Below, one piece after another: positions 39,787 to 63,016 of a stretch of DNA of 64,000 nucleotides. The notes below the pieces were generated by a model. The model made no database searches, was not told where the DNA came from, and saw only the letters and a list, made by a program, of their open reading frames with translations. Source of the stretch: a virus (taxonomy: Duplodnaviria > Heunggongvirae > Uroviricota > Caudoviricetes); the IMG/VR virus record IMGVR_UViG_3300029742_000285, positions 1,475 to 65,474 of that record; one strand, written 5' to 3'. Positions within the stretch are counted from its first letter, which is position 1; each line of letters begins with the position of its first letter. The position numbers and the translations under genes are program-made.

Positions 39787-40170
39787 TCACCAACACTCAC
39801 CAGCCTTTTTGGTGATGAAAGCGGGCACGTTCCTGCCGGTAGCCCGGCACAGGCAGACACACTTGGCGATCCAAATGTTCCAATCCGGCGTATAAAATGC
39901 GCAATCGGATTTCTTTGATTCTGCTTCTTCATACGCTCTAATGTAAGCTACGGTATAACCATCTGAGCCAAACCACTCAATGCTATACCCGTCCAAACAC
40001 AATCGGCTCATAATGCGCATTGCTAAGTGCTGCGCTTCCATGATTTCCGCTTCTGTCCACTTCAGCTTGTCCGCTTCATAAGCCTTGACCGCTTCGTCAA
40101 TGGCGTGGTGCGCTTCGTCTGGGTGTTTAAGGTCTACCTTTAAGGTGATGATCTGTTCCATGCTACTCAT
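39787..40170 (-). CDS. Hypothetical protein
   Basis: 127-aa ORF, first gene after cro. Confidence 0.3.
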   Translation of the reverse strand: MSSMEQIITLKVDLKHPDEAHHAIDEAVKAYEADKLKWTEAEIMEAQHLAMRIMSRLCLDGYSIEWFGSDGYTVAYIRAYEEAESKKSDCAFYTPDWNIWIAKCVCLCRATGRNVPAFITKKAGECW

Positions 40171-40364
40171 TTTCCCTCTCTTTCCTTCAACAGCTCTTCT
40201 AGAGCTTCTTTTACCTTAGCTTCCGCATTTTTAGGCTCACGCTTACCGTTCAGGATTTTTCCCAAGTATTCCGGTGCGCATCCAATTTTTGCAGCAAGCT
40301 CTCTGATTTCGATGCTGTTAACGTGAAGCGTTCCAACAACATCGCCTGTCCACTTAGGAAGCAA
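40167..40364 (-). CDS. Cro-like HTH regulator
   Basis: 65 aa. Helix-turn-helix segment IRELAAKIGCAPEYLGKILNG. Divergent from the repressor gene. Confidence 0.5.
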   Translation of the reverse strand: MLPKWTGDVVGTLHVNSIEIRELAAKIGCAPEYLGKILNGKREPKNAEAKVKEALEELLKEREGK

Positions 40365-40594
40365 ATTTTTTCTCCTTTCTTGTTCTAGTACTTGAACTTT
40401 TTGAAAGAATATGATAATATTATGGTGTCAAGCAAAAACATTATCGAACGTTCTTCTATTTGTTCAAAGCCTTTAATTTGTTCTACCGATTGAACCCGGT
40501 AGCCTTATTAAAGCACAAGTAGTAGAACTTTTCAAGTGTTTTTGTTCAAGTGGTAGAACTTTGTCATCTTGTACAAACACTGGAGGTATGTTTT

Positions 40595-40930
40595 GTGTTT
40601 TTTGACAATTTCGTAAGGCTATGTGAGCAAAAGGGAGTAAAGCCGTCTCGTGCTTTGACTGAAGCTGGCGTTCCGAAATCTGCTTATAGCTATTGGAGAG
40701 CCGAAGCAGGTTCAGGGAACGATGCAAAGCCGACCAATCAAAATGCCGTTAAGCTGGCACAGTATTTCAATGTTACGGTCGACTACCTTCTTACTGGCAT
40801 CCAAAAAGAAAACCCGTCCCAGCAGCCGCAAAGTGAAGTCGATGCAGCAGTGGAGCGGATTAGAAGAAAACTTGAATCCATGCCGAAGGAGCAGCGTGAA
40901 GCTCTGATGAACCTGATCGAGAAGATGTAA
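40595..40930 (+). CDS. CI-like XRE-family repressor
   Basis: GTG start with GGAGG 9 nt upstream. An alternative GTG lies at 40550. Helix-turn-helix segment ALTEAGVPKSAYSYWR. Confidence 0.5.
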   Translation: MFFDNFVRLCEQKGVKPSRALTEAGVPKSAYSYWRAEAGSGNDAKPTNQNAVKLAQYFNVTVDYLLTGIQKENPSQQPQSEVDAAVERIRRKLESMPKEQREALMNLIEKM

Positions 40931-41274
40931 CGTTCATGCCCGGTAAAATAAAAAGAATCCCTTGTGCCGGGCTGGTGTAGCTCTGCGCAAGGGATTTTCT
41001 GTTAATCTAGGTCTAGTGCTTGCTCTGCTGCTGGAATCTTTTCAGGGTGTTCTAGCAGCCATGCAATAAATCTGTCAATCTTGGCTCTTTCTTGTTCACT
41101 CATTGTGGCATATCCTCCCGATTGGCAATCTCTGATGTTCATTTGATATTATTATACATCTTTCAGTTGTGTAGTCAATACCATTTTAACAACTTTCGCG
41201 CTTTTTTAGTTTTTTTCGGGGAAGCCACGAGTGTTCAAGTCAAAAGGGACAACGCCTATCCATCTTTCCTCCAA

Positions 41275-41478
41275 TCACAGCTCTACGAGCTGACCGTCAA
41301 TGCGTTCGATATTGTCTGCCGGGTCGCGCCCATCGTCTAAAGCGGCTACGGCGCGTTCAAGAACGTTTTTTGCTTCTTCATAAGCAAACTTATCAGCATC
41401 GTTGTTCGCAAGGTTGTAGACCAGCTTTAAGGCGGTCTGGCGGGCATATGGAATGAGCATGGTGTCAATCTGATTCAT
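41275..41478 (-). CDS. Hypothetical small protein
   Basis: 67-aa ORF. Confidence 0.25.
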   Translation of the reverse strand: MNQIDTMLIPYARQTALKLVYNLANNDADKFAYEEAKNVLERAVAALDDGRDPADNIERIDGQLVEL

Positions 41479-41696
41479 ACACTAACCCTCCCATGGTTTC
41501 GGCGTTTTGTTTTCGTTCGGTTCAGATGCGGGCATTCCATCAATGATAATCATGTTGTTACCTCCTGTTTTGATTGTTTTTTTCGATGGTACAGTTATAA
41601 CACAGGCTGCTGTTGGTTCTCCATAGCAGCTTTTTCCATTTTTTGGCTTGTCGAATCCGGCAGTTTTGCTGGATTTTGTTGAAAGGGTGAGGATTT

Positions 41697-42290
41697 ATGG
41701 ATGAATATTTAGTAAGAACAGCCAAAGCATTGGAGATAGCTCGAATGCGTTCCGGCTTGAGCCAGCAGAAATTGGCGGCAAAAATTGGCGTGAATCGTGG
41801 CACGATAGCAAATTGGGAGCAAGGTCTGGCAGCCATTTCCCTTCCGATGGCTATGCGCTGGTTCACCTGCTGCGGCGTATCGGCGGATCGATACATGGAC
41901 GCTTGCATTCACCCAGGGCTGCTGGAACACCTGGAAGAAGACCTTTCCGATCTGGAGAAACGGCGGATTCTCATAGATGCTATGATGGAGTGCTCCTCCT
42001 ATGAGATAGACGCCTTGTTGTACATCCGGTACGGAGATCACGGCTCAGACCACATCGGCGTATTGACGGAGATTCTGGCAAACCTCCACACGCCGTTGAA
42101 GGACAGGGTCGCTGTCTGCCGGATGGCATCCGGTAACTATGAGATGGCACAGGCTACCGGAACAGACCCAGACCCGAACGGTACCGCCCCAAAGATGGAA
42201 ATTCTCTATCAGGCACAGGACGCTGGAACAGAAGCAGCCATGAAGTCCAACGATTCCTATACCGTTAATCCAAATAATATAACTGGTTGA
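41697..42290 (+). CDS. XRE-family HTH regulator with C-terminal extension (second repressor-like protein)
   Basis: N-terminal HTH (LSQQKLAAKIGVNRGTIANWEQG). 197 aa. Confidence 0.45.
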   Translation: MDEYLVRTAKALEIARMRSGLSQQKLAAKIGVNRGTIANWEQGLAAISLPMAMRWFTCCGVSADRYMDACIHPGLLEHLEEDLSDLEKRRILIDAMMECSSYEIDALLYIRYGDHGSDHIGVLTEILANLHTPLKDRVAVCRMASGNYEMAQATGTDPDPNGTAPKMEILYQAQDAGTEAAMKSNDSYTVNPNNITG

Positions 42291-42335
42291 TTGTCGAATT
42301 ATCGCAGTTTTTGAAGAACATTCTGTCCACATTCA

Positions 42336-42526
42336 TCCACTTTTTGTACACCTATCGGGCAAAATTGCCTTGTCATTTCGTCCCCCATAGGCTGTAAATC
42401 GACAACATTCGTGCGGAATAAATAACGAATTAGCGTTAATATACTGTTTGTGATTGAGTGGCTTGTCAATCCGTCCCCCATCGTGCAGATTAGGTATACC
42501 TTTCCATCCACTTTTTGTACACCTAT
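42336..42526. repeat. Origin-associated repeats: two identical 21-bp direct repeats TCCACTTTTTGTACACCTATC, two inverted RepA iterons (GTCAWTYCGTCCCCCAT) and one DnaA-box-like site CTATCCACA
   Basis: Direct repeats at 42336-42356 and 42506-42526. Inverted iterons at about 42362-42380 and 42463-42481. DnaA-like box at 42523-42531. Confidence 0.5.
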
Positions 42527-42723
42527 CCACAGTCCGTCCACGTTTGGTATAGCTAATGGAAAGTCACTTCATCACCGGTACAGTCCTATTCAGCAAGCGA
42601 CAACTTGAGTTATCAACAAACTGGAATGGAAAAATAAAGAAATTGTTGAAAATTATCGTCATCGACTATTTAACGATGATATTTAACCTCTTGTTTATTT
42701 CTTGTTTAATATATAATATGTAG

Positions 42724-42835
42724 ACGGGGGACGAAATGACAAAGCATGGGGGACGTTTTGACAAGTCATGGGGGACAAAATGACGAGGATATGGGGGACA
42801 AAAAGACAAGTCACGGGGGACGAAAACGGTTGACA
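42724..42835 (+). repeat. Five tandem 22-bp iterons A(T/C)GGGGGAC(R)AAATGACAAGYC abutting the repA promoter
   Basis: Copies at 42724, 42746, 42768, 42791 and 42813. Preceded by an AT-rich stretch at 42600-42720. Confidence 0.6.
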
Positions 42836-42858
42836 CGTCCCCCTACTTGTGATATACT
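42830..42858 (+). promoter_or_regulatory. Sigma70 promoter TTGACA-17-TATACT for repA. Overlaps the last iteron.
   Basis: TTGACAcgtccccctacttgtgaTATACT. Confidence 0.5.
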
Positions 42859-42887
42859 GTTTTCAGACCATTAAAGGAAGTGAGCAG

Positions 42888-43964
42888 ATGCCAAAAATAT
42901 CAGACAACAACCTTGTCGAGAAAAGCAAATCCCTTGTTTGGGCGAAGTTCAGGGACTACACCGCAGGAGAACTTCGGTTGTTGGAGGTTTACCTATCAAG
43001 AATAAATCCGAGAGACCCTAACAGTAGCCGTGTGGAGTTCACTTTGGCAGAGTATAGAGACCTGCTCGGACTGAAAAGCCTTGACGCTAGGAGGATTGAG
43101 CCGCAGATCAAGCACTTTTTAGGCAATACGGTTTCGATTCCTATTGACAAGGAGAAAGGAACATTTGAAAGCTTTGTCCTATTCACGAGGGCAAAACTGG
43201 ACTATGTACCAGAAACAAGGTCTTACGTTGTGGCAATCACCTGCAACCCAGACCTTCGTTCTATCTTCTTTGACATCGCAGAAAGCGGCTATGTCCGGTA
43301 TCGGCTACGTTACACGTCACGGATGAAGTCGCAGTACAGCATCTTGCTCTATTCGATTCTTCGGGACTGGATGAACATGGACAGCAAACCGCATGAAATC
43401 AGTCTGAAGAAGTTGAGGGAACAGCTCGGTGCAACGGAAGCCAGCTACGATGTTTACAAGAACCTTCGCAAGCGAGTGCTTGACGTTGCGGTGGACGAAA
43501 TCAATGCTGTGTCTGACATTGTTGTGACTTACGAGCCAGTCCTTGTAGCGCGAAAAGCTGTGGCAGTCAAGTTTAAGCCAAAAATTAAAGCGTCTGAGAC
43601 GTTGATTGAAGCACAGGCAAGCGAAGTGTTGACCGAACCTCAAAAAGTCGTCAAAAAGCCCCGTAGAAGCGGATACGATGATTTTGACTGGTCTATGTGT
43701 GACGAACTAGAAAAGCAGGACTGCATTGATGTGGCGAAGGTAGTTGAGAAGTGGATGAAGAAAGAGCATCCTGAAATCAAGCTGCCAAGACGCAGAGAAG
43801 CGGTTTACGACACGGTGAAGGCGGCGTATAAGGACATTTTGTCTTTGGATAGGTCTCCGTTCCCGGACAGACCTGTTGGCTATCTGATTAGAAGCGTGGA
43901 CAAGGCGGGTATCGTAGACAGGTATATGCCAGCGTTCTATTCCATCGAAGCGTTGCAAAAGTAG
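42888..43964 (+). CDS. repA: Plasmid-type replication initiator (Rep_3 / RepA-like)
   Basis: N-terminal SLVWAKFRDYTAGELRLLEVYLSRINP motif typical of Rep_3 initiators. Iterons directly upstream. RBS AAAGGAAGTGAGCAG ATG. Confidence 0.65.
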   Translation: MPKISDNNLVEKSKSLVWAKFRDYTAGELRLLEVYLSRINPRDPNSSRVEFTLAEYRDLLGLKSLDARRIEPQIKHFLGNTVSIPIDKEKGTFESFVLFTRAKLDYVPETRSYVVAITCNPDLRSIFFDIAESGYVRYRLRYTSRMKSQYSILLYSILRDWMNMDSKPHEISLKKLREQLGATEASYDVYKNLRKRVLDVAVDEINAVSDIVVTYEPVLVARKAVAVKFKPKIKASETLIEAQASEVLTEPQKVVKKPRRSGYDDFDWSMCDELEKQDCIDVAKVVEKWMKKEHPEIKLPRRREAVYDTVKAAYKDILSLDRSPFPDRPVGYLIRSVDKAGIVDRYMPAFYSIEALQK

Positions 43965-44000
43965 TCAGATTATTCAGATAAAGTAGAAAGGAGAAAGAGT

Positions 44001-44282
44001 ATGATTCCGATGTTTCCGAAAGGCTTTGACAAAGACAAGTGGTACATGACTAAAGATGTTATGCCGGATAAAAGCCTAGAAGGATGGCCGCATGGGCTTT
44101 TACTTCGTATCGAAGATGAGAAAACAGGAGAAGAAAGTTTCATAACCGGCGAGTACGATACAATCAACGACAAATGGTTTGATTCCGATAGTAATGAAAT
44201 CAAAGGAACTGTAATTGCATGGCACGTCACGCCTGTGTTGTGGGTCGGAGACGAAATAAAAGCAGCATATCCGTTCTACTGA
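44001..44282 (+). CDS. Hypothetical protein (93 aa)
   Basis: RBS AGAAAGGAGAAAGAGT ATG. Confidence 0.3.
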   Translation: MIPMFPKGFDKDKWYMTKDVMPDKSLEGWPHGLLLRIEDEKTGEESFITGEYDTINDKWFDSDSNEIKGTVIAWHVTPVLWVGDEIKAAYPFY

Positions 44283-44299
44283 AAAGAAAGAGTGATAAA

Positions 44300-45067
44300 A
44301 TGGCAAAAATCATAGCTGTCGCTAACCAGAAGGGCGGCACAGGAAAGACCACCACAAGCACCTGTTTGGCTGGTGCGTTGCAGTTGCTTGGCAAGAAAGT
44401 CCTGCTGGTGGACTGCGATGCCCAGTGCAATGCAACGGACACCTACGGTGCACAGACAGAGAATGTTTGTACCCTGTTTGACGTGATGACCCGGCAAGGC
44501 ACGGTAGAGGAAGGAATCCAGCACTGTGAAGCCGGTGACATTCTTCCGTCTGACAGCGCATTGAAGGACATTGACGAGCAGCTTGTCCGGGACATGGGTA
44601 AGAACTTCCGACTGCGAGAAGCCCTTGAAAGTGTATCCGAGCAGTACGATTACATTGTACTGGACACTCCCCCGCAGCTCGGCCTTGCGCTTGTGAACGC
44701 ACTGATCGCCGCCAACAGCATTATCGTACCTATCACAGCAGACCGTTACGCACTGGCTGGTTTGAGCCAGCTTTCACAGACCATCGGTGATGTTCGTAGA
44801 TATTTCAACCCAACTTTGAAGATTGAAGGTCTGCTTCTGAACCAGTACAAAAGCAGGGAGAACCTGTCCAAAGAGGTTGTGGAGCAGCTTCCTGTGATTG
44901 CACAGAGCATGGGCACAACCCTGTTGGACGTGAAGATTAGACCGTCTATGGGCGTTCGTAAGGCTCAGGCAGAGCGTCACAGCCTGTTTAGCGGTGACAC
45001 GGCAAAGAGTACCAGTGCAGAGGATTTCAAAGCGTTGGCGAAGATGATTGTAGAGGGGGATGTGTAG
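44300..45067 (+). CDS. parA: ParA/Soj-family partition ATPase
   Basis: Deviant Walker A KGGTGKTTTS. About 255 aa. Confidence 0.8.
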   Translation: MAKIIAVANQKGGTGKTTTSTCLAGALQLLGKKVLLVDCDAQCNATDTYGAQTENVCTLFDVMTRQGTVEEGIQHCEAGDILPSDSALKDIDEQLVRDMGKNFRLREALESVSEQYDYIVLDTPPQLGLALVNALIAANSIIVPITADRYALAGLSQLSQTIGDVRRYFNPTLKIEGLLLNQYKSRENLSKEVVEQLPVIAQSMGTTLLDVKIRPSMGVRKAQAERHSLFSGDTAKSTSAEDFKALAKMIVEGDV

Positions 45068-45324
45068 TGAATGTAGTTAGATATAAAGAGCTGGAAAAAG
45101 CCGAGTTTGAATTGCAAAGCAAATTCAGCTCGAAAGATGTTATGTTTTTCCGCCGAGGGGATGGAATAGACAATCCGATTTATTATGTTGTTTCGCAAAG
45201 ACATTGTGGGGCGTTAAGTCCCGAAGAAGCCATAAAAGCCGGAAAAGTTTTGATTGAAGCTGGAAATGCGGCGAAATCTTTTCGGTACAACGGGTATTTT
45301 ATTGATTGGAGTGACACACAGTGA
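45067..45324 (+). CDS. Hypothetical protein (85 aa, GTG start overlapping parA stop)
   Basis: Translational coupling GTGTAGTGA. Confidence 0.3.
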   Translation: MNVVRYKELEKAEFELQSKFSSKDVMFFRRGDGIDNPIYYVVSQRHCGALSPEEAIKAGKVLIEAGNAAKSFRYNGYFIDWSDTQ

Positions 45325-45893
45325 AAAAGTCCAGCAAAAAAACATCCGGCTTGTTGGGCGGGTTTGACTTCCAGCCTATTTCTTCGGGGCGGGCATTAAG
45401 CCAAAGTGAGCCAAAGGAAGAAGAAGTAAGCCAAGCAAAGCCGAACGAAGCCGAACAAGCACAGATTAAGCCTAGTGAAGCCACAGACAGCCATACGCAG
45501 CCTAATGAAGCAATATTAAGCGATATTAAGCCGAAGCAAGCCAAAGACAGCGAAACACAGCCAAGCAATGCCATAGTAAGCGAAAGTAAGCCAAAGAAGC
45601 TGAAACAGGCGAAGGAAGTTCAACGTCTTATCGAACAAGGCGATGTTCCCGGCGCACTAGCCGAAGCTAGCTTGACAAAGAAAAAAATCCCGATGCCGGA
45701 ATCGCATCAGGGCGTTGCAAGTGGTGATGGCAAGCGTTCCAAGCGCATTACCATCCTTATGAGCGAGGAAGAGCGCAAGTACATCAACCGTGAAGCCAGA
45801 CGGCACGGAATGACGATTGGGCAGTTCGTGTACGCTCTTGCGGTTGCGGCGGCAGAAGGAAAGATTGAATTGGAGGATTTCTTAGATGAATGA
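45321..45893 (+). CDS. Ribbon-helix-helix (ParG/omega-like) protein. Long Pro/Lys/Glu-rich repetitive N-terminal region. The functional protein may be the C-terminal ~65 aa.
   Basis: C-terminal KRITILMSEEERKYINREARRHGMTIGQFV. DNA of the N-terminal part carries TAAGCC(A/G)AAG repeats. Confidence 0.4.
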   Translation: MKKSSKKTSGLLGGFDFQPISSGRALSQSEPKEEEVSQAKPNEAEQAQIKPSEATDSHTQPNEAILSDIKPKQAKDSETQPSNAIVSESKPKKLKQAKEVQRLIEQGDVPGALAEASLTKKKIPMPESHQGVASGDGKRSKRITILMSEEERKYINREARRHGMTIGQFVYALAVAAAEGKIELEDFLDE

Positions 45894-46281
45894 CGTATGG
45901 ATTGACATTGGGCAGAAATATGAAGCAATGGCAAATATGGGATGCAAGCCTTATGGCTTCAAGCGGGTTCCATCAAATTTTGTGTTTGACGAAGACAAGT
46001 CGGTAAAGTGGAACAAAGAGCAAGCGCAAAAGAATAACGATGATTACGACAATGAAGTTAAGCGGCTGAATCAAGAGAAAATGAAGCGTAGGGATGAAAT
46101 CTACGCAGAGATTTATAAGACAATTCAAGAAGAAGTCGGTTTTGGGATTTCAGAAAAGAAAGCGGAAAAAATTTGGGAGTACGCTTACGATAGAGGGCAT
46201 TCAGCAGGATGGTATGAAATAATCGTAAATTTGGAAGAAATTGAAGAATTTGCAAAGTTCATATTGGATAAAAAGAACTGA
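45886..46281 (+). CDS. Hypothetical protein (131 aa), first gene of an AT-rich 3-gene cassette
   Basis: ATG overlaps the RHH stop (ATGAATGA). Confidence 0.35.
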   Translation: MNDVWIDIGQKYEAMANMGCKPYGFKRVPSNFVFDEDKSVKWNKEQAQKNNDDYDNEVKRLNQEKMKRRDEIYAEIYKTIQEEVGFGISEKKAEKIWEYAYDRGHSAGWYEIIVNLEEIEEFAKFILDKKN

Positions 46282-46298
46282 GTTGGAGGATTTATTGG

Positions 46299-47180
46299 AT
46301 GAACGATAGTGAACGACACCTTATTCGATTTGTTTGCGATGGCGATATGCGAAACGCGCAAAAAGCCGTTAAAATCATTTTGAATTCTATATCATCCAAA
46401 AAAGATGAGCAGTTCAAGGAAAATATGTTTCGCAAGTTGGAAAGCAAAAGAGAATTTATTGAATTGCCATATAACTTACAGCATCTTTTGATCGCAGAGG
46501 ATACAGAAGAATTTCCAGAAGCAAGATTCCTTCTTAGGAACGAAGAAAAAAGTATAACGCAGAAAATCGTTGCTATTTATCGAGCATCTGAAAAATTGAA
46601 CGAAATGGGCATTCCTTATTTGCCAGCATTGATGCTTTATGGGCAAAGTGGATGCGGGAAAACCATGCTGGCTAGGTATATCGCGCATAAAGCAAAACTT
46701 CCGTTTTTGAGGATTCAATTTTCAAGTCTAGTTGATTCGCACTTGGGGCAAACACAATCTAACCTTGCAAGAATTTTTGATTATGTGAGAACTGCTCCTT
46801 GCGTTCTTTGTTTTGATGAAATAGATGCAGTTGGAATGGCTCGTGGGCAAAAAGATGACGTTGGGGAAATGAACCGTGTGGTTATCGCGATTATGCAGGA
46901 AATGGATAGATTGCCGAACAATGTAATTATTATTGGAACGGCAAACCGATTTGATAGGCTCGACCCTGCGCTTATAAGAAGATTTCCGTTGCAATACGAA
47001 TTAAAGCCGTTGTGCCGTGCGGATGCAGAAATACTTTCTAAAAGGTTCTTTGAATATGCAGGAGCACAATATGAAAACATAGCTTATGAAGATTACGTCC
47101 CAGCATCTACGGTTATCAAAGAATGTACAGAACGAATTGTAAATCAAGTTCTGAATCAAGAGGATTTCTTGGAGGATTGA
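46299..47180 (+). CDS. Classic-clade AAA+ ATPase with about 100-aa N-terminal domain of unknown function
   Basis: Walker A LYGQSGCGKTMLA, Walker B CVLCFDEIDAV, sensor/arginine-finger region TANRFDRLDPALIRRF. Confidence 0.7.
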   Translation: MNDSERHLIRFVCDGDMRNAQKAVKIILNSISSKKDEQFKENMFRKLESKREFIELPYNLQHLLIAEDTEEFPEARFLLRNEEKSITQKIVAIYRASEKLNEMGIPYLPALMLYGQSGCGKTMLARYIAHKAKLPFLRIQFSSLVDSHLGQTQSNLARIFDYVRTAPCVLCFDEIDAVGMARGQKDDVGEMNRVVIAIMQEMDRLPNNVIIIGTANRFDRLDPALIRRFPLQYELKPLCRADAEILSKRFFEYAGAQYENIAYEDYVPASTVIKECTERIVNQVLNQEDFLED

Positions 47181-47183
47181 CGA

Positions 47184-47462
47184 ATGGGCGTAACCATCAA
47201 ATGCAAAAAGACTGGGCGTGAAATGGATGTGGGCTATTTCGGGTTTTTCAAGTTGAGAACGAAGGTTGCAGAACTTGTTGGTTCGGAAGTCGGAGAGCAC
47301 TATAAAAAACTTGATGACATTCTCGACATACCATCTCCCGAAAAAGAACACGTTCTAGAATCATACAATGACGAAACAGAGCGATTGGTTGAAAGCAAAA
47401 TGCTTCCGATTAAAATTGCAGATTTCCTTTATCAATCGGACTGTGACGGAAAAATCCGATAA
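47184..47462 (+). CDS. Hypothetical protein (92 aa)
   Basis: Starts 3 nt after the AAA+ stop. Confidence 0.35.
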   Translation: MGVTIKCKKTGREMDVGYFGFFKLRTKVAELVGSEVGEHYKKLDDILDIPSPEKEHVLESYNDETERLVESKMLPIKIADFLYQSDCDGKIR

Positions 47463-47620
47463 GGTGCCTGCAAGGAAATCTTAAAAGTTATAGGTGATTA
47501 TGACGATAGCATTATTTGCGGATATGCTGGTAGAGAAAACCCCGCAAAGCTCAAAGACTTCAAAGAAATCCTTCAAGATTGTGTAGGCAATAAGTGCTTT
47601 ATGATTTGGAGATAACAATA

Positions 47621-47660
47621 AACCCCTGTGTAGTCACAATGACCGCACAGGGGTTCTGTT
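47621..47660. terminator. Bidirectional rho-independent terminator at the junction between elements A and B
   Basis: ACCCCTGTG-15nt-CACAGGGGT hairpin flanked by AATAAA (5') and TCTGTTTTA (3'). Confidence 0.5.
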
Positions 47661-48299
47661 TTACTTATCAGCAATGCAATCCCAGTAGAGATACGCCTTG
47701 CCATCTGCAGCATCTGCGTCTTCAAGGAACGCCTTTGCCATGTCAGCGTAGAAGCCCGAAGTGTCAACGGACTGACGCTTTGCCACCTGACAATAATCCG
47801 AGTACATCATGTTCATAACAGCCCAGAAATCGTTCGGGTCACAGGTGATATTGCGCTGTTTCGCAACGTCCTGCGTCTGTTCCAACGTCCAGTGACAGCC
47901 CTTTGTGCCGTCAGCGTTGACCATGCTGTCACACCATTCCTCTGCTTCATCGTGGGTGAGGTGCTGGCGTGGCATCCTGATTGAGCGGCTGTCTGCGCCG
48001 CCACGTTCGTACTGTCCAGACCGCTTGTCCCAGTCTCCGTTCTGCGAGAAGCCGATTTGCGGCATCTTGCGCCCATACTCTACGTCAGGGTAGCGGGGGA
48101 TAGGGTAAGGGTCGATGTAGCGGTTTTCCTCCTGCGGATAGTAGGGATAGCGGTCGTTGCCGCCTTCCAGCTTGCGCAGACGGCGTTCCATCTCACGCTC
48201 CCTGCGGTCACGCTCTTCCTCAAGGCGGTCACGCTCCGGCTCACGGTCTTTGTCGTGGTCGCGGAGCATCATCATGCGGCGAAAATTGTTCTTGCCCAT
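47661..48299 (-). CDS. Hypothetical protein with charged RD/RE-rich N-terminus, YPYYPQ segment and Cys-containing C-terminal domain
   Basis: 212-aa ORF, RBS AAGGAGGTATAG upstream. Confidence 0.35.
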   Translation of the reverse strand: MGKNNFRRMMMLRDHDKDREPERDRLEEERDRREREMERRLRKLEGGNDRYPYYPQEENRYIDPYPIPRYPDVEYGRKMPQIGFSQNGDWDKRSGQYERGGADSRSIRMPRQHLTHDEAEEWCDSMVNADGTKGCHWTLEQTQDVAKQRNITCDPNDFWAVMNMMYSDYCQVAKRQSVDTSGFYADMAKAFLEDADAADGKAYLYWDCIADK

Positions 48300-48312
48300 A
48301 ATCTATACCTCC

Positions 48313-48684
48313 TTAAGAAATGGACGCGGGCGCACCAGCGTGGGAACGGCAGAAGCAGCCAAAATACTTGAACGTGCCTGTGCCAGTGGCAGACGTTGCA
48401 ACGCGGGTAGCGTAGCGGGTGCGAGTGTGGATGCTTTCAGCGGTTGCCTGAGCGCAGTTGCAGTCGGTCAGAGGGTATGCGGTCGTTCCTGCACCGATGG
48501 TAATGACCACAGGAGCGTTGATGGTGGTCGTGTCCGGGATGCTCTGGGCAACTACGATGCAATACTTCTCTCCGTTCTGGTATGCGCCAGCAGGGATGTT
48601 GATGGTCAGCGTGTCATTGGCGAACGTCACCGCATCCGAGATGACGAGGTGCGGGCACAGACGGCAGCTTGTTTTGCAAGCCAT
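48313..48684 (-). CDS. Thr/Ala-rich, Cys-containing small protein of unknown function
   Basis: 123 aa. CxxC near the N-terminus, CNC and CFC motifs. Confidence 0.35.
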   Translation of the reverse strand: MACKTSCRLCPHLVISDAVTFANDTLTINIPAGAYQNGEKYCIVVAQSIPDTTTINAPVVITIGAGTTAYPLTDCNCAQATAESIHTRTRYATRVATSATGTGTFKYFGCFCRSHAGAPASIS

Positions 48685-48770
48685 AATGTTTTCCTCCTAT
48701 AAAAATCAGGGGCAGAGGTGTCTTGCCCCTGCCCCGATGGTTCACCCGGTGTTATCGGGGAGTGTGTTGG

Positions 48771-49643
48771 TTAGCAGCAGCCGCAGCAGTTCACGCCCAC
48801 GTTGGGGTTTGCCACCTGATAAGCGGGAATCGGACGAGGATTGACCCGATTCAGGATGGTATCAGTCTGCTGGGACATCACGGTGGTCAGAAGCGCATTC
48901 TGCCGATCCTGAGAAGCGGCAAACTTGAGGTTCTGGTTCTCAGCGGTCAGAGTTGCGATCTTGTCCTGCGTGAAGTAGTCCATCATGCTGCGGAAGTTGG
49001 CGTTGCAGTTGTCCACGATGGCGCGGGCATTGTCTGCGATGGCCTGCCGGGTGGCACAGTCTTCCGTTGCGATGGTGTACTTCAGGTCGCCGATCAGCTG
49101 CTTGTTCTCGCAGCAGCAAGATGCCAGCTGCGTGGCAAGAGCGGTCTGACCCGCCTGCCGTGCGTTGCCTTCCTGCATGATAGCAAGGCTGATGGCATTG
49201 TCGCCGTTGGACACGCTGCGTTCCAGGCCGTTCACCAGCTGTGCGTTCTGGTAGCCAAGCTGACAGATGGCACTGTTCACGCCTGCAAAGCCGTTCGCGA
49301 TGTTGGTGTTGACGCCGTTGATCTGCGCCAGCTGGTCATACCCCAGAGAGCAGATACCGCTCTGGATGCCCGCCAGAGAGCGGGAGGTATCCTGCTGATA
49401 AAAGCCCTCAGACAGAGCCGCGCGGGTGTCGTTGCCGCCCTGCCCGGTTGCGCCAGTGCCGACCAGATAGGGGATGTAGCTCGCCATACCGTTGTCGCTG
49501 CCGTTGCGCCCGTTGCCGTAGTTGCCCCAGCCGAAGATGATAGCGAGGATAATAACAGCCCAAAGACCCTCGTTGCCGAAGAATCCGCCGTTGTTATTGC
49601 CGCCGTCCTGCCCAGCCAGATAGCCAGTTGCAAAATCGTCCAT
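48771..49643 (-). CDS. Gly/Asn-rich membrane-anchored protein with internal repeats and C-terminal CCGCC
   Basis: Starts MDDFATGY. TM helix LWAVIILAIIFGW. Repeats GIQSGICSLGY / VNSAICQLGY. Ends VNCCGCC. Confidence 0.35.
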   Translation of the reverse strand: MDDFATGYLAGQDGGNNNGGFFGNEGLWAVIILAIIFGWGNYGNGRNGSDNGMASYIPYLVGTGATGQGGNDTRAALSEGFYQQDTSRSLAGIQSGICSLGYDQLAQINGVNTNIANGFAGVNSAICQLGYQNAQLVNGLERSVSNGDNAISLAIMQEGNARQAGQTALATQLASCCCENKQLIGDLKYTIATEDCATRQAIADNARAIVDNCNANFRSMMDYFTQDKIATLTAENQNLKFAASQDRQNALLTTVMSQQTDTILNRVNPRPIPAYQVANPNVGVNCCGCC

Positions 49644-49782
49644 AACAAAACTCCTTTCAGTTTTGCGTATGCTATCCCACCGCCGTATGCGATGGGCGAA
49701 GCCAAACAAATGCGGTTTTTGTCAAGTCCGCAAAACTGAGAAGCGTTTCGCTTAGAGAGATGCTTATTTTAGGGTTGTTAAG

Positions 49783-49944
49783 TCAGCTCGGAGGGTTGCC
49801 TTTTTTATCTTTTGAGTCATCCCAATTTTTGCTGGCAGCACCGAAAATGAAGCCAAGCATTAAAGGAACCCATATTTTGTCATCGCCACACAGATTGTTG
49901 ATGTCAAAATCTTTTTCGGAATGGCTGTTTTCAAAATCATCCAT
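49783..49944 (-). CDS. Small membrane protein (53 aa), MDDF-start paralog of the downstream gene N-terminus
   Basis: RBS GAAGTGAGGAGACTTTGCA ATG. TM helix IWVPLMLGFIFGAA. Confidence 0.3.
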   Translation of the reverse strand: MDDFENSHSEKDFDINNLCGDDKIWVPLMLGFIFGAASKNWDDSKDKKGNPPS

Positions 49945-49956
49945 TGCAAAGTCTCC

Positions 49957-50208
49957 TCACTTCGGAAGCGTCAAATTCAGGACGCTTGCCAGCTGGTTCA
50001 GGTCGATGCCACGCTCTTTGGCGAGGTTCTGCGCCATCGTTCGGAGTTGCGCTTCGTTTTTGCCCTGAATCAGGTTCAAGCCCTGCATGATAGGAGCATT
50101 CTGCCCGCTTAACTGCTGGATAAGACCCATCGGGTTTTGTCCGGCACGAGCCAGATTTGCAAGCTGCATGATAGGGCTGTGAGTAATCATATCAAACGGA
50201 GAGGACAT
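49957..50208 (-). CDS. Hypothetical Gln/Leu-rich protein (83 aa)
   Basis: ORF in the operon. Confidence 0.3.
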   Translation of the reverse strand: MSSPFDMITHSPIMQLANLARAGQNPMGLIQQLSGQNAPIMQGLNLIQGKNEAQLRTMAQNLAKERGIDLNQLASVLNLTLPK

Positions 50209-50211
50209 CGC

Positions 50212-50730
50212 TTATTCTCCTTTCTTCGCTGCGGCAGTGGGTTTAGAAAAGCTCTTCTGCCACTTTTCCAGTTCATCCAGACGGTGGACGAGGGTGTTGT
50301 ACTGCTCAATAGGCACATACTGCTGTGTCGGTGCAGCGGTCTGCTGTGCCTGTTGTGCTTGCATCTGCCGCCATGCTTCCGGGCTGTAAAACTCCTGCAC
50401 ATAGGATTCGCAGGTGTCTGGGTTAAGCCGCTTGCAGTAGATCACGCCGCTGCGCAAGTCTGGGCAGTAGGTCGGTCTGCCATACAGGTCTGAAGGTATT
50501 GCCAAAAATTCTTCCCTGCTGGAAACAGGTCTGCCGAGCAGCCAACCGCCATCTTGTGCCGACTGCTGAACAGGCTGCTGCCCATTCATCGGCTGCGGAC
50601 GCTGCGGTTGTGCCTGTTGCATCTGCGTGTTGGGCAGGGAAGTGGCAAGCCCTACCGTGCCCATGCCGCCGTAAGGATTGACAGGCTGCTGCGGAACGTA
50701 AGGCGCTCCGGGTGCCGGATAATAGCTCAT
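50212..50730 (-). CDS. Pro/Gln-rich low-complexity protein with Cys-containing C-terminal domain
   Basis: Start MSYYPAPGAPYVPQQP preceded by CAAGGAGGGATG. Confidence 0.35.
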   Translation of the reverse strand: MSYYPAPGAPYVPQQPVNPYGGMGTVGLATSLPNTQMQQAQPQRPQPMNGQQPVQQSAQDGGWLLGRPVSSREEFLAIPSDLYGRPTYCPDLRSGVIYCKRLNPDTCESYVQEFYSPEAWRQMQAQQAQQTAAPTQQYVPIEQYNTLVHRLDELEKWQKSFSKPTAAAKKGE

Positions 50731-50884
50731 AAAACATCCCTCCTTGTGCATCCAGTGTACCGCATCGGCAGAAACCGAGAGACAACGAACGCACAACGAA
50801 GGGCAAAAAAGAAAAGCGGCAGACCCGAAAGCCTGCCGCTTCAATGCGTTTCGTGAGAAATCACACCCAATTAAAATTATGGTA

Positions 50885-51178
50885 TCACACATCCAGCATT
50901 TTATCAATGATTTTCAACCTATTGCCGATTGATGTCCGACAATACGGCACACGCGCTGCAATATCAACTTGGCATAGCTGGTCAACGTACCGCAACCGGG
51001 CGATTTTCCGGTCATACCTCCCAAGCGGCGCACGTTTTATCACAGCTTTTATCTGTTCTGCATTAAGCCCTTGCAACGCTGGCGGAAAGACTATGCGAGC
51101 CGCCGCCACAGGCAGCACCGAGCCAGAAGGGCTGCGGCAGCTGTCCGGCGTTGCGCACCATAGTGCCAAGCGCGGCAA
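50885..51178 (-). CDS. Sigma-70 region-4-like HTH segment. Possibly the C-terminal part of a frameshifted ArpU/RinA-like late regulator continuing from the 51063-51341 frame.
   Basis: LNAEQIKAVIKRAPLGRYDRKIARLRYVDQLCQVDIAARV resembles sigma region 4. Overlaps a second ORF (51063-51419) in another frame. Confidence 0.25.
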   Translation of the reverse strand: MPRLALWCATPDSCRSPSGSVLPVAAARIVFPPALQGLNAEQIKAVIKRAPLGRYDRKIARLRYVDQLCQVDIAARVPYCRTSIGNRLKIIDKMLDV

Positions 51179-51351
51179 ACCGGTGACAAAACGTCACCAT
51201 TTCGCCAACGTTGTCAAAATGGTATGTTTTCGTGAGACCACGAAAACGTGCGCAGACCATTTTCGTGGCGTGCCGAAATTGCTCTTGTGCGGCGTACATT
51301 TTGCTGGTGTCAACAAAATGCTCGTATGTAGTGCTTGCCATGATATCCTCC

Positions 51352-51576
51352 TTACAGTGTGATTTCCTCAGCGTTCGCCTTGTCTTTCGCATCCAGAGCG
51401 TCGTAGTACGCCTGTGCAAGGGCTTCCACCTCTGCGATATCGTCCTCCGTCAGCAGGCCGCTGTCCAGATGGGTGTACGCTTTGTCCAGCCAGTATGCCA
51501 CATCGCGTCCTGCGGCGATTTCTCGCTTGATGGAGCGCAGGGTCAGGTCGTGGCGGGCTTTGGATTTAATTGCCAT
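51352..51576 (-). CDS. Hypothetical protein (74 aa)
   Basis: RBS AAGGAGG upstream. Confidence 0.3.
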   Translation of the reverse strand: MAIKSKARHDLTLRSIKREIAAGRDVAYWLDKAYTHLDSGLLTEDDIAEVEALAQAYYDALDAKDKANAEEITL

Positions 51577-51586
51577 GTGTGCCTCC

Positions 51587-52759
51587 TTATGTGGTAGTCA
51601 TGGACGCGATTGCGTCCTCCAGCTTTTTGATTGCGATGTTTACGTCCCTCTGATACCCCAGCCGGATTCCCGCACCGTCACCAGCCTGCACCACCGTGTC
51701 AGGGCCGTAAGTGGTAAGGGCTTTGTAGGCGGCGATTTCGTCAGGGGTGAGCGGGGTTTCGATGGGAGTGGCGAGTATTGCATTCTGCTCAGCCAACGGC
51801 TTGGTGCTGTCGAAAGCCGCTTTATCTACCCTCTGCACTCGCACCCCTCTCTCCAAGTCCACCTCGTCACACATCCACTGCTGGCCTGTGCTGTCAGTGT
51901 AGCTGCCGCCAGAGGCGACGGGGATGCCGGGTAAGCCGCCGGGTGTGGGGAGCGTGAGGAGCTGTTCACGGTAGGGGGAGTAGGCGGTGATAGCGTTTCT
52001 TGTTAAAGAAACTTGAACAGTGGTATTTAACGTTGTACCTTTTTTGATTTGTAGGCGGAGTGAAAACTCCACGTCTCTGGTAAGCGTTACTTTCTGGTTT
52101 TGCACATCAGAGGAATATTTCCCGACGAAATAGAAGTTGAGCGTGACAGAAGGACTTAGCCCACTAGCCGTTAGGTAGTAAATACCACGAGTTAAAGGGT
52201 GTGCCACATCATCGTGTAAGAGTATGGTAAAATCGTTGGTAGCCGTACCAGTAATTAAAAAACCATTTTCATAGGTAGTGTAAGTTATTCCGTATACGGT
52301 CGATTTCACACCGGGTTTAGTGCCCTCTAGCATGTTTGCTCCCGTTACTTTCACCGCCACGCTCCCGTTCTCGCCAGCGCTCACGATAGGCACAGGTGCA
52401 TCCGGCGTGGGTGTGCCGTCCTGCGTGCCGCTGTTGGCGCTGACACGGTAGTGCAGGTCTGCGCTGGTGACGGTCTTTGCGCCGTCGCTACCCTCAAAGG
52501 TGACGCACCCGCTCCCGGGCTGTGCGGTCACGCTGGCAGGCACGTCCACATAGCCGTCCACCACCAGCGAGGCGGGAGGATCAGCGCCACCGGGGATGTG
52601 CCAAAATGCCCGGATAGCCAGCCCGGCCCACTCGCCGGTTGCATCGACGTGCAGGCGGTACACGCCTCGGTTCTTGGTGTAGCCAAAGCGCACCAGCTGC
52701 TCATAGCCCGGCACTTTGACGACGCCATTGGATGCGAGAGATACGCTTTGCTCGATCAT
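51587..52759 (-). CDS. Beta-rich hypothetical protein (390 aa) downstream of the lysis cassette. Fiber/receptor-binding-like or cargo.
   Basis: Thr/Gly/Val-rich, no TM. Position after the holins. Confidence 0.35.
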   Translation of the reverse strand: MIEQSVSLASNGVVKVPGYEQLVRFGYTKNRGVYRLHVDATGEWAGLAIRAFWHIPGGADPPASLVVDGYVDVPASVTAQPGSGCVTFEGSDGAKTVTSADLHYRVSANSGTQDGTPTPDAPVPIVSAGENGSVAVKVTGANMLEGTKPGVKSTVYGITYTTYENGFLITGTATNDFTILLHDDVAHPLTRGIYYLTASGLSPSVTLNFYFVGKYSSDVQNQKVTLTRDVEFSLRLQIKKGTTLNTTVQVSLTRNAITAYSPYREQLLTLPTPGGLPGIPVASGGSYTDSTGQQWMCDEVDLERGVRVQRVDKAAFDSTKPLAEQNAILATPIETPLTPDEIAAYKALTTYGPDTVVQAGDGAGIRLGYQRDVNIAIKKLEDAIASMTTT

Positions 52760-52762
52760 AAA

Positions 52763-53098
52763 TTACTCCTTGTTGATGGTAGGCTTCTTTTCTGCCAGTG
52801 CCTTTTTCATCATGCTGACAGCCTTTTCAATCACACTGTCCAGCACTTCATCGGTGATGAAAGGCTTCAGCCAGTCCGGCAGGGCGCCGCGCAGCGCAGC
52901 AAAGACCTGTGCCTTTTTCTTGGCACCCTGACCGCTGCCCATGATGCTGTCCTCGGCGATGGTCACGAGCTCCAGTGCCCACTGCTTGACGTACTGCTTG
53001 TAGCCCAGCCGGATGGCACCAACGGCCAGCGCGGCAAAGCCGATGAGCATCAGTACCAGTGCGATGGGTGCGGGGATAAAATTAAACATTGCTTCCAT
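52763..53098 (-). CDS. Holin
   Basis: 111 aa, two N-terminal TM helices, charged C-terminus. Adjacent to the endolysin. Confidence 0.5.
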   Translation of the reverse strand: MEAMFNFIPAPIALVLMLIGFAALAVGAIRLGYKQYVKQWALELVTIAEDSIMGSGQGAKKKAQVFAALRGALPDWLKPFITDEVLDSVIEKAVSMMKKALAEKKPTINKE

Positions 53099-53101
53099 AA
53101 T

Positions 53102-53359
53102 TTAAGCTCCTTTCTGCTGTTCAAGATCTTCAATGCGATGGTTTGCCACCTTAATTTGTTCTTCCAGCACTGGCACACGCTGAGCGAAATTATTGTGCGC
53201 CCGGACTTCCCGGGCCAGCTCGTCCAGCTTAGTGTCGGTAATGGCCTGCTGTTTTTCCAGCTTGGCGTCCATGTTTTGAGCGGCCCTGCTGTTAGAGATA
53301 AGCACGCCGATCAGGCTCAGGCCGCCAGTTATGAGTGCTACGATGATCGCGTCGCTCAT
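53102..53359 (-). CDS. Holin-like / XhlA-like small membrane protein
   Basis: Start MSDAIIVALITGG overlapping the endolysin stop. One TM helix followed by a coiled coil. Confidence 0.4.
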   Translation of the reverse strand: MSDAIIVALITGGLSLIGVLISNSRAAQNMDAKLEKQQAITDTKLDELAREVRAHNNFAQRVPVLEEQIKVANHRIEDLEQQKGA

Positions 53360-54009
53360 TCGCCCTCCCGGAGACGGGTCAGACCCTTCTTGCTGATGAT
53401 ACCCGTATAGTCCTTGTATGCGTGGGACATGTCCACGTTGGTGGTCACACCGGGTACACGGGCCTTGCTGGTATACTGCCACATGCCAAAGGGCCAGCTG
53501 GGCGCGGGCTTCTTCGTGCGGTAGGCAGCCAGCCACACGTCGAAGGGCTTCAGGGCCGCGCCGCCCATGTAGAGGAAGGTACTGCCAAACCACAGGCCAG
53601 TGTAGAGCAGAGCATACACGCCCCAGCTTTCCACCGTGCTCAGCATGTGAGCCGTCAGGTTGGTCAGTGCGGCCTTGTCCAGCGGCTTCTGCGCCTCGTC
53701 CTCGATGTCCACGGCCACCGGCAGCTCAAAGCTCCGGCCGGTGAGCAGCTTTTTGAAATAGGCCAGCTCCTTGTCGGCCTGTTCCCGGTTGACTGCCTTA
53801 AAATAGCCATACACGCCGCAGGGAATGCCCAGCCGCTTGCATTCTGCATAGTTGCGGGCAAGCTGTGGGTCAGTGTAGGGAGCACTGGGCCTGCCCGATC
53901 CGCTGTTGCCCATGGCACGAATCATCACGCCGTCCACCTTCCCGCTTGCCTTGACCTTCTCCCAGTCGATCGTGCCCTGATATCGGGACACATCCATGAT
54001 TTCAGTCAT
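53356..54009 (-). CDS. Endolysin, glycoside hydrolase family 25 (muramidase)
   Basis: DVSRYQGTIDW motif. Start MTEIMDV with RBS AAGGAGG. Confidence 0.75.
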   Translation of the reverse strand: MTEIMDVSRYQGTIDWEKVKASGKVDGVMIRAMGNSGSGRPSAPYTDPQLARNYAECKRLGIPCGVYGYFKAVNREQADKELAYFKKLLTGRSFELPVAVDIEDEAQKPLDKAALTNLTAHMLSTVESWGVYALLYTGLWFGSTFLYMGGAALKPFDVWLAAYRTKKPAPSWPFGMWQYTSKARVPGVTTNVDMSHAYKDYTGIISKKGLTRLREGE

Positions 54010-54019
54010 AGCGTCCTCC

Positions 54020-54211
54020 TTACTGCGTGATTTCCTCAAAGCCGCTCTTGATGAGAATTGCCTTGACCTTCTCCTTCAGCAGGCGGGGGCAACGCTCGTA
54101 CAGAGCCTTTGCGTCCTCCATAGTCTCAGCGAACATAATTTCCTGTGCCCACAACTTAGCCATCATACGTACCAACCTTTCTAATTTTTGTGTGATTTTA
54201 TGCATAAACAA
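54020..54211 (-). CDS. Hypothetical small protein (XkdX-like position)
   Basis: 63-aa ORF between fiber and lysin. Confidence 0.3.
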   Translation of the reverse strand: MFMHKITQKLERLVRMMAKLWAQEIMFAETMEDAKALYERCPRLLKEKVKAILIKSGFEEITQ

Positions 54212-54590
54212 TCTCGCTCATTTCAAGCAAGCATTGCTTGAGCATCTCGTTTTCTTTTTGCAGTGCCGCCACCGTCTCCGGCAGCTTCTTCCAGGCTTCG
54301 GCCTTTTTGCGCTCTTCTTCCTGCGCGGCCAATTCTTCTTCCGTATAGCGGATGTATCTCTGCACCGGCACCTGTTCGGTCCATGCGGCCTGCGCAGGCA
54401 CGCCCGGCACGTCGATGATCTTCTGCACGTCCCTGCCACCGTTCGGATACTCGGTCACGGTCTCCCAGTGCCACTGCTCCTCCACGCCCTCTACGGCGGG
54501 GTGGGTGACTTCTTCGGTGTCAGCTGTCAGATAACCCAGCGTCAGGTCGGGGTTTTCGATGACCGCGCCGGTCTCGTCAATGATTTTCAT
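54198..54590 (-). CDS. Hypothetical acidic protein downstream of the tail fiber
   Basis: 130-aa ORF, RBS GAGGTTTTGACTT ATG. Confidence 0.3.
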   Translation of the reverse strand: MKIIDETGAVIENPDLTLGYLTADTEEVTHPAVEGVEEQWHWETVTEYPNGGRDVQKIIDVPGVPAQAAWTEQVPVQRYIRYTEEELAAQEEERKKAEAWKKLPETVAALQKENEMLKQCLLEMSEIVYA

Positions 54591-54608
54591 AAGTCAAAAC
54601 CTCCTTTC

Positions 54609-61641: not shown

Positions 61642-61658
61642 AGAGATACTTCCTTTCG

Positions 61659-63001: not shown

Positions 63002-63016
63002 GGCGGCACCTCACTT

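Follow-up and report, generated by a model that had tools for sequence, protein, structure and literature searches.

The 64,000 nucleotide (nt) stretch of DNA analysed here, referred to below as the window, represents positions 1,475 to 65,474 of the IMG/VR virus record IMGVR_UViG_3300029742_000285. Most of it is occupied by a tailed phage element that carries a plasmid-type replication and partition module, consisting of an iteron origin, repA, parA and a gene for a ribbon-helix-helix (RHH) protein, in place of an integrase gene. The element is probably a phage-plasmid, i.e., a circular temperate gut phage with a plasmid replication and partition cassette, and we infer that it is maintained in cells as a plasmid. 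A phage-plasmid had been proposed in a first-pass annotation, which was made from the sequence without database searches; the proposal is supported by the Rep/Par module, by the lack of an integrase, by the circular assemblies of related contigs and by the varied positions at which these contigs are broken.

Replication initiator and partition proteins

Feature coordinates are in Table 1. RepA, initially described as Rep_3-like, displays both domains of this family at scores above the curated Pfam cut-offs (Rep3_N, 3.4e-22, 79.8 bits, cut-off 22.4; Rep3_C, 2.3e-13, 50.6 bits, cut-off 21.1). Residues 27-224 match the mini-F initiator RepE (PDB 1REP, E 2.7e-7), and in PHROGs the protein belongs to phrog_4402, "replication initiation protein". 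A tblastn search shows homologues on 2,566 PLSDB plasmids, where they are annotated as replication initiators, and the best of these has 37% identity and is from a 6.9-kb plasmid of Mediterraneibacter gnavus. Among phage records, the close matches to RepA are only unannotated fecal contigs.

The ParA assignment is also confirmed. The protein matches AAA_31 (1.3e-54) in Pfam, the ParA-like phrog_164 and Soj/ParA structures in the PDB; it has the deviant Walker A motif KGGTGKT at residues 11-17 and is without an N-terminal helix-turn-helix (HTH) domain.

The protein encoded downstream of parA had been termed an RHH protein. Structure modeling and conservation are in keeping with an RHH domain, which is a candidate assignment because the Pfam score is just below threshold (NikA-like RHH, 1.5e-5, 25.5 bits, cut-off 27). 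In the AlphaFold model, a disordered N-terminus precedes an extended segment and two helices (residues 149-161 and 166-178), for which the model confidence (pLDDT) is 76-88, and the C-terminal 100 amino acids (aa) are nearly invariant across 16 relatives. The N-terminus has seven 10-aa KP repeats (“xSxxKPxxAx”) whose residues vary among relatives, and two relatives are short by exactly one whole unit. A search of PDB sequences with the protein and with its alignment profile gave no matches. At the DNA level, AAGCC-rich repeats of 10 and 30 bp are found within the RHH gene (positions 45380-45600). They were considered as a centromere and rejected, as they are most simply a by-product of the 10-aa KP peptide repeat.

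Two small open reading frames (ORFs) are situated between these genes. The 85-aa ORF is missing in the contig L005, and other relatives have DUF551 ORFs in its place. The origin, repA, parA and the RHH gene are retained from relative to relative. Because the intervening small ORFs and the region 45886-47462 differ among relatives, these four form the conserved core of the module. As judged from sequence, the module is a genuine Rep_3 iteron replicon with a ParA/RHH partition pair.

It can be asked whether the module belongs to the phage at all, or is a plasmid fragment that was misassembled onto phage DNA. The window does hold one possible misjoin, at its right side. However, the module has the HTH regulator gene on one flank and the DUF7841 gene on the other in every related contig examined, and these contigs stem from many samples and several assemblers. 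A foreign origin of this kind is thus extremely improbable.

Table 1. Positions of the features discussed, numbered from the first nucleotide of the window.
Feature	Position	Strand	Remarks
Small serine recombinase, 185 aa, invertase/resolvase type	17532-18089	-	Pfam Resolvase 1.4e-42; phrog_125 DNA invertase
Second (lytic-type) replication set, DUF6291 protein gene and DnaB helicase	26292-28222	-	
Divergent cro-like and cI-like repressor genes	40167-40930		cro-like 40167-40364 (-), cI-like 40550-40930 (+); PHROGs transcriptional repressor families
Third HTH_3 regulator	41697-42290	+	Directly upstream of the origin; Pfam and PHROGs
23-bp direct repeat, copy 1, CATCCACTTTTTGTACACCTATC	42334-42356	+	Identical to copy 2
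Inverted iteron copy a	42366-42388	-	83-95% complementary to direct-array units; perfect motif match on the minus strand
Inverted iteron copy b	42459-42481	-	Complementarity and motif match
23-bp direct repeat, copy 2	42505-42527	+	Degenerate third copy (70%) at 42535-42557
DnaA-box-like CTATCCACA	42523-42531	+	Second, 1-mismatch box at 42610-42618
AT-rich tract, candidate DNA-unwinding element	42600-42722		27% GC at 42600-42699
Iteron array	42726-42836	+	Four good 22-23-bp units and a degenerate fifth over the -35
repA promoter TTGACA-17-TATACT, TG extended -10	42830-42858	+	With palindrome, 42815-42858
repA, Rep_3 family initiator, 358 aa	42888-43964	+	Pfam, PHROGs, PDB
Small ORF, 93 aa, replaceable slot between repA and parA	44001-44282	+	Without family match; absent or different in some relatives
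parA, small Walker-type partition ATPase, 255 aa	44300-45067	+	
Small ORF, 85 aa, replaceable slot between parA and the RHH gene	45067-45324	+	
RHH protein, 190 aa, candidate centromere-binding partner of ParA	45321-45893	+	
Variable cargo: orf131, IetA-like AAA ATPase, orf92	45886-47462	+	Differs among relatives
Hairpin (inverted repeat I5)	47621-47655		Between the convergent rep/par operon and late/cargo genes; site of GC jump
345-bp exact repeat, fibre C-terminal Gp10_C receptor-binding domain	54637-54981	-	Base-by-base comparison with L177 and L182
Tail module of Aster-like integrative Faecalibacterium prophage	54982-64000	-	Not part of the element

Origin region

Directly upstream of repA, Tandem Repeats Finder detects an array with a period of 22 bp and 4.5 copies (positions 42726-42825, score 107). 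By eye, five iteron units can be delimited by their GGGGGAC heads, which start at 42726, 42748, 42770, 42793 and 42815; the spacing of 22, 22, 23 and 22 bp places them in helical register. Four units are good copies, and the degenerate fifth contains the -35 hexamer of the repA promoter. The motif GGGGGACRNNNNGAC, when one mismatch is allowed, has 10 matches in 64 kb compared to 1.3 expected, and all six of the perfect matches together with one 1-mismatch match cluster within ~470 bp (42372-42843).

The repA promoter is the best match to the consensus in the 40-48 kb region (11/12). A palindrome, GGGGGACG...CGTCCCCC, spans its -35, and an inverted GTCCCCC is present within the promoter spacer. 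The classic location of Rep autorepression operators is over the -35 of the rep promoter, and the palindrome is a candidate operator for autorepression by RepA. The 23-bp direct repeats could represent a centromere or the site of a host factor.

To assess conservation, 650 bp upstream of repA were aligned from 68 distinct related sequences and the mean column identity was determined. The highest value, 0.93, is reached by the iteron array as well as by the AT-rich tract; it is 0.84-0.85 for the promoter and for the inverted iterons, and 0.63-0.86 for most of the remaining sequence.

The first-pass annotation had listed most of these elements. Its five iterons (one of them now seen to be degenerate), their overlap with the promoter, the two inverted copies and the AT-rich tract are all found as described. 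The two direct repeats are indeed identical, but their length is 23 bp and not 21 bp. A DnaA-like box is also present but counts for little, for reasons that are discussed below.

Absence of an integrase

No integrase was detected by Pfam or PHROGs in the large ORFs of the window. In addition, three phage tyrosine integrases used in a tblastn search against all six frames produced noise only, and the precomputed domain and gene tables of related contigs do not contain an integrase. Thus the observation that the element has no tyrosine or large serine integrase is confirmed, and persistence in cells in the form of a plasmid is therefore the most likely state.

Among named phages, the nearest to the element is Clostridium phage Maintenon (ON453900, 57 kb), whose host is [Clostridium] innocuum. 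Identities between the two are 52% for TerL, 33% for the portal protein and 36% for the major capsid protein, and they are alike in genome size, in gene order and in the presence of a DnaB helicase gene in the early region. Maintenon has a tyrosine integrase gene beside that of a cI-type repressor, in the order integrase-cI-cro, whereas the element displays ori-repA-parA-RHH at the equivalent position. Therefore the module sits where an integrase would be expected, as was originally surmised.

A linear plasmid prophage of the N15 type was rejected, as relatives assemble as circles and none of the ORFs scanned matches a protelomerase-like family. The window is also without an unassigned ORF of ~600 aa. 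A Mu-like transposable phage was also considered, as the flanks on the same side differ between three contigs. This reading was dropped, since each of these flanks begins at a single exact repeat that the contigs have in common and since no transposase family was found; the sole match to a transposase family is weak and secondary, and falls on the small serine recombinase.

Assemblies of related genomes

The exact RepA sequence is present in 124 collection blocks of public assemblies. The contigs listed measure 54.5-58.9 kb, the location of the gene within them varies widely, and in none of the 124 blocks does a contig of more than 200 kb carry it. In IMG/VR, 289 contigs encode a relative, and 80 that are 96-97% identical were kept. 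Near-full-length contigs (52-62 kb) make up 52 of the 80, and their breaks are scattered between 4 and 58 kb beyond the start of repA. In hundreds of public contigs of 54-61 kb the module has the same location. Relatives with a 96-97% identical RepA assemble as 54-61-kb contigs, and two of these contigs (57,968 and 60,698 bp) show exact 99-bp end overlaps. The overlaps are at different genome positions and thus represent assembly circles rather than fixed physical termini. The circular state is that of relatives; the window itself is joined to prophage DNA at an exact repeat.

A 122-aa tail protein of the phage is found in 4,958 collection blocks. In 1,302 of these, the longest contig that encodes it measures 50-200 kb, and no contig above 200 kb carries the protein in any of them. 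An exact look-up of the 1280-aa tape-measure ORF gave no match, probably because of a different called start. One contig of 115,402 bp (IMGVR_UViG_3300045988_050806; L024 and L051) has two non-identical copies of the phage genome 59.8 kb apart. It probably represents two strains concatenated by assembly and not a true dimer.

Extent of the element and junction with a prophage

The element had been thought to end at ~47 kb. This is not borne out, as it continues to position 54,981. There is a jump in GC content near 47.6 kb, from roughly 0.42 to above 0.55, but it is a module boundary, at a bidirectional terminator hairpin between convergent units. All related contigs run from the rep/par module straight into the genes of 47.6-54.9 kb, the order of which is DUF7841, ORFs of 123, 290, 83 and 172 aa, a collagen-like protein, a GH25 endolysin and the fibre. 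Relatives have a 152-aa ORF after the fibre gene and then the gene of an 868-aa tail protein, and the window starts inside the latter. The ~1.4 kb that lies outside the window in relatives holds the end of the 868-aa tail protein gene, the 152-aa ORF and the fibre N-terminus. Thus window positions 1-54,981 plus the ~1.4 kb constitute the genome of a temperate siphovirus of ~56 kb. The GC content of positions 47600-55000 (late cargo, lysis and fibre genes) is 0.51-0.58, compared to 0.42-0.50 elsewhere in the phage. The higher value comes near the GC content of the Faecalibacterium prophage segment with which the window ends, and this suggests that the region was acquired from resident prophages.

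The remainder of the window belongs to another phage. Positions 54,259-64,000 are 99.0-99.5% identical to chromosomal Aster-like Faecalibacterium prophages (L174-L181), and the right-hand part of the window is ~80% identical to Faecalibacterium phage Aster. The related Aster-like contig L174 carries a tyrosine integrase. The Aster-like fibre protein is found in 129-197-kb contigs with bacterial flanks (L175-L177), unlike the proteins of the phage-plasmid.

The position of the switch can be narrowed. Between 55,600 and 54,637 the window agrees base for base with prophage L177, and it is 100% identical over 13.4 kb to a contig of the element's own type, L182, at and below 54,981. Since the first identity reaches 54,637 and the second starts at 54,981, the switch must be inside the 345-bp exact repeat. 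A second contig, L001 (parent contig 56,275 bp, run ERR912096), is 100% identical to the window over the 21 kb compared. By extrapolated coordinates, both L001 and L182 end ~1.5 kb to the left of window position 1, which in the circle is the other side of the same repeat.

The junction is either an assembly misjoin, which is favoured, or a cointegrate formed by homologous recombination, which is the less probable of the two. Joins of this kind arise in an assembly graph once one side of a repeat that exceeds the k-mer has been pruned, and homologous recombination would yield them just as well. The first-pass annotation had named an integrase and att sites with chromosomal flanks just outside the window as findings that would refute a phage-plasmid. 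The join to prophage DNA touches on this, but an att/integrase junction is not seen, and from its sequence the junction does not resemble the product of site-specific integration.

The host is probably Faecalibacterium, because the receptor-binding domain is common to the element, to Faecalibacterium prophages and to a Faecalibacterium chromosomal locus, and because part of the lysis region matches Faecalibacterium phage Lugh. The nucleotide identity of the Gp10_C domain is 100% with the prophages and ~92% with the chromosomal locus. For most of the element the GC content is 42-50%, lower than in the Faecalibacterium-derived segments.

Points that weigh against plasmid maintenance

Several results weigh against a phage-plasmid and should be considered together. 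Within the origin, the DnaA box is weak and doubtful as judged from sequence. There are 16 1-mismatch DnaA boxes in the window compared to 12 expected, i.e., no enrichment, and CTATCCACA is poorly kept in relatives (conservation 0.43). No centromere was identified in the element; the only candidates are the 23-bp direct repeats at 42334, 42505 and 42535 and the AAGCC-rich repeats of the RHH gene, and the KP peptide repeats account for the latter. A circular assembly is also expected of a circularly permuted, terminally redundant virion genome. No RepA relatives were found in 185,579 species-representative genomes, and a nucleotide search of PLSDB with the 8 kb at 40000-48000 gave no near-identical match. 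A survey of 31 F. prausnitzii strains likewise reported no plasmids or circular extrachromosomal elements (PMC6295017). From these three negatives, no plasmid-carrying lysogen is known. Finally, the element in the window is not a free circle but is joined to a fragment of an integrative prophage at 54,637-54,981; L182 leaves the phage-plasmid at exactly 54,981 and enters a different fibre-like gene next to glgB; and a 150-kb contig ends in a relative, whose break falls in the fibre/collagen region as well.

Some of these points would be accounted for if the phage was effectively lytic or a transient carrier, with Rep_3 and ParA but no stable plasmid lysogeny, and with RepA acting as an early initiator. 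The lack of an isolate or reference genome with the element and the strain survey agree with this, as does the inability of circular assembly to tell plasmid DNA from a permuted virion genome, and the related GenBank contigs are labelled as bacteriophage sequences from human fecal samples. However, the element has a divergent switch of the cI/cro type, a further HTH repressor and a Bro/ANT antirepressor. A separate DnaB-based replicon is present on the lytic strand, and the rep/par genes have the orientation of the repressor gene, which is opposite to that of every lytic gene. In addition, the partition ATPase and its invariant RHH partner have been kept in hundreds of variants. An effectively lytic phage is therefore an unlikely explanation.

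The junctions raise another possibility, that the element integrates without an integrase by homologous recombination in shared tail-fibre and lysis sequences, the window being a cointegrate. The switch of the window from phage-plasmid to Aster-like prophage inside the exact repeat, the join in L182, whose fibre-like locus is conserved in Faecalibacterium chromosomes, and the 150-kb contig are in keeping with it. On the other hand, the junction of the window is absent from IMG/VR, from JGI metagenomes and from 11 contigs that encode an identical fibre protein. The ends of L001 and L182 display the pattern of an assembly graph walked through a repeat, and the exact common stretches of 159-345 bp are longer than the k-mers of the assemblies (119-141). 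By far most contigs have the length of a genome, and a conserved Rep/Par module would be pointless in an obligately integrated element. Integration of this kind is given a low probability.

The glgB-side join of L182 was itself rejected as evidence of chromosomal integration, as it falls in a conserved Faecalibacterium fibre-like/lysis locus that has the same repeat; the locus and the 345-bp repeat have exact common stretches of 159 and 128 bp. The chromosomal locus comprises glgC/D, glgB, a 3D-domain protein, a Gp10_C fibre-like protein of 486-492 aa, an M15 peptidase and an SPP1-type holin. It is seen in positions 1-8500 of L182 and in several Faecalibacterium genomes (L200-L202; F. langellae CNCM I-4541), and it looks like a fibre-plus-lysis remnant kept beside the glycogen genes.

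A different proposal can be made from the same observations, namely that the lineage is a low-copy Faecalibacterium plasmid, the first native autonomous replicon known for the genus, which docks reversibly into prophages and prophage remnants via the receptor-binding-domain cassette. This proposal is speculative and rather doubtful. If true, it would mean integrase-free integration together with an exchange of host-range determinants.

Genome organization and a proposed model of plasmid maintenance

The window up to ~55 kb has the complete gene set of a siphovirus-type phage. The virion and lysis genes include those of the terminase, an SPP1-type portal, a Phage_cap_E capsid protein, the tape measure, DUF6711 and DUF6273 tail proteins, a Gp10_C fibre and a GH25 endolysin, and a Bro/ANT antirepressor is encoded as well. 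All lytic genes are on the minus strand. The plus strand carries the cI-like gene, the HTH regulator gene, repA, parA, the RHH gene and the cargo; together with the origin, these make up the lysogeny block at 40.5-47.5 kb. The module adjoins the cro/cI-like switch, as had been noted, and is placed between this switch and the lysis/cargo genes.

Also confirmed, by Pfam and by repeat evidence, is a lytic-type replication set that pairs DnaB with an organizer gene containing internal repeats. The DnaB helicase gene is at 26292-27515 and the DUF6291 gene, at 27512-28222, is just upstream of it on the minus strand. Inside the DUF6291 gene, at 27829-27917, are three TACCATTCGTATC-type repeats and a GGTATAC palindrome. 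The arrangement resembles that of origins embedded in initiator genes, and the repeats are a likely lytic origin. The small resolvase-family recombinase reported earlier is present too and is a candidate multimer resolvase; a search for inverted repeats that flank it and would mark an invertible segment found nothing convincing.

A model for the phage-plasmid can be put forward. In lysogeny the cI-like repressor would hold off the minus-strand lytic genes, including the DUF6291/DnaB replicon. RepA monomers would bind the four to five 22-bp iterons and melt the adjacent AT-rich tract, and theta replication of the circle would begin with host helicase and primase. RepA dimers on the -35 palindrome would repress the repA-parA-RHH operon, and copy number may be limited through pairing of the iteron array with the two inverted copies upstream of it. 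Segregation of the plasmid copies would depend on ParA and the RHH protein, and multimers may be resolved by the small serine recombinase. On release from repression, the DUF6291/DnaB replicon would drive lytic growth.

In the cargo region the AAA ATPase encoded at 46299-47180 gives a match (PADLOC, 1.8e-54) to IetA, a component of the anti-phage defence system Iet. No gene for the protease partner IetS adjoins it, the neighbours being the 131-aa and 92-aa ORFs. A 28-nt sequence, TGAATTGGAGGATTTCTTAGATGAATGA, is found with variants at three successive gene junctions of the cargo (45866-45893, 46279-46306 and 47153-47180). It gives both the EDFL(D/E)(E/D)-type C-termini and the ribosome-binding site of the next gene. 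As the cargo differs among relatives, the 28-nt sequence may be a linker for cassette exchange.

Other genes of the phage include a tRNA-Met (13789-13866) and those of an RtcB RNA ligase (16271-17503), a radical-SAM-family protein (25365-26282), a type II DNA methyltransferase (30578-31423) and an SPFH/Band 7 protein (31566-32429).

Significance

To our knowledge, genetic tools for Faecalibacterium are poor. The genus is associated with health, and the ~1.7 kb origin and repA cassette, with the par genes, is a candidate vector backbone. The element is also a candidate native replicon for a genus in which the 31-strain survey showed no plasmids (PMC6295017). The lineage is extremely widespread among assemblies from the human gut, to judge from the 4,958 collection blocks that contain the tail protein.

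Phage-plasmids are a recognised class and are reported to be common in the gut and its viromes (bioRxiv 10.1101/2025.02.07.636470; for crAssphage, PMC10983915). The lifestyle itself is thus not new. In the literature searched, no description was found of this lineage as a phage-plasmid, nor of any Faecalibacterium phage-plasmid. A receptor-binding domain is shared exactly by this element, by integrative prophages and by a chromosomal locus, which shows that elements of one host actively exchange sequences. The sharing also explains misjoined or cointegrate contigs, which could mislead prophage calling.

Comparison with known systems

The arrangement of the replicon is similar to that of mini-F RepE and of the RepA replicons of pPS10 and pSC101, whereby a two-winged-helix initiator is accompanied by tandem 22-bp iterons next to rep. 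Further similarities to Rep_3 theta replicons are the AT-rich tract beyond the iterons and the inverted partial iteron over the rep promoter. The lactococcal pCI305-type replicons are Gram-positive iteron theta replicons of the Rep_3 family. RepA of the element differs from its plasmid relatives in an extra C-terminal region of ~120 aa and in its location inside a 56-kb phage genome.

Type Ib partition systems, e.g., ParF/ParG of TP228, consist of a small ParA and an RHH centromere-binding protein. The element resembles these in its 255-aa ParA, which is without an N-terminal DNA-binding domain, and in the downstream protein with a disordered N-terminus and a candidate C-terminal RHH. It differs in that repA, parA and the RHH gene are separated by replaceable small ORFs, in the sub-threshold Pfam score of the RHH domain and in that no centromere repeats were identified.

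Burkholderia phage KS14 is a plasmid prophage and has a Rep_3-related “replication initiation protein” with 27% identity to RepA over 96 residues. However KS14 is an unrelated P2-like myovirus of a proteobacterium.

The plasmid prophage of phage P1 has oriR/RepA with iterons, ParA/ParB, a separate lytic origin and Cre/lox dimer resolution. P1 and the element have in common an iteron replicon with a partition ATPase, a second, lytic replicon, a possible dimer-resolving recombinase and the lack of an integrase. P1 was absent among the RepA and terminase matches, and no sequence relationship was found. P1 is a 94-kb myovirus with an HTH ParB and a tyrosine recombinase, whereas the element is of the siphovirus type, of 56 kb, and has an RHH protein and a small serine enzyme. 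The first-pass annotation had compared the element to both P1 and N15. The comparison to N15 fails, with no protelomerase and with circular relatives, but that to P1 stands at the level of logic. The element is not a relative of P1 or N15 but would work like P1 with unrelated parts.

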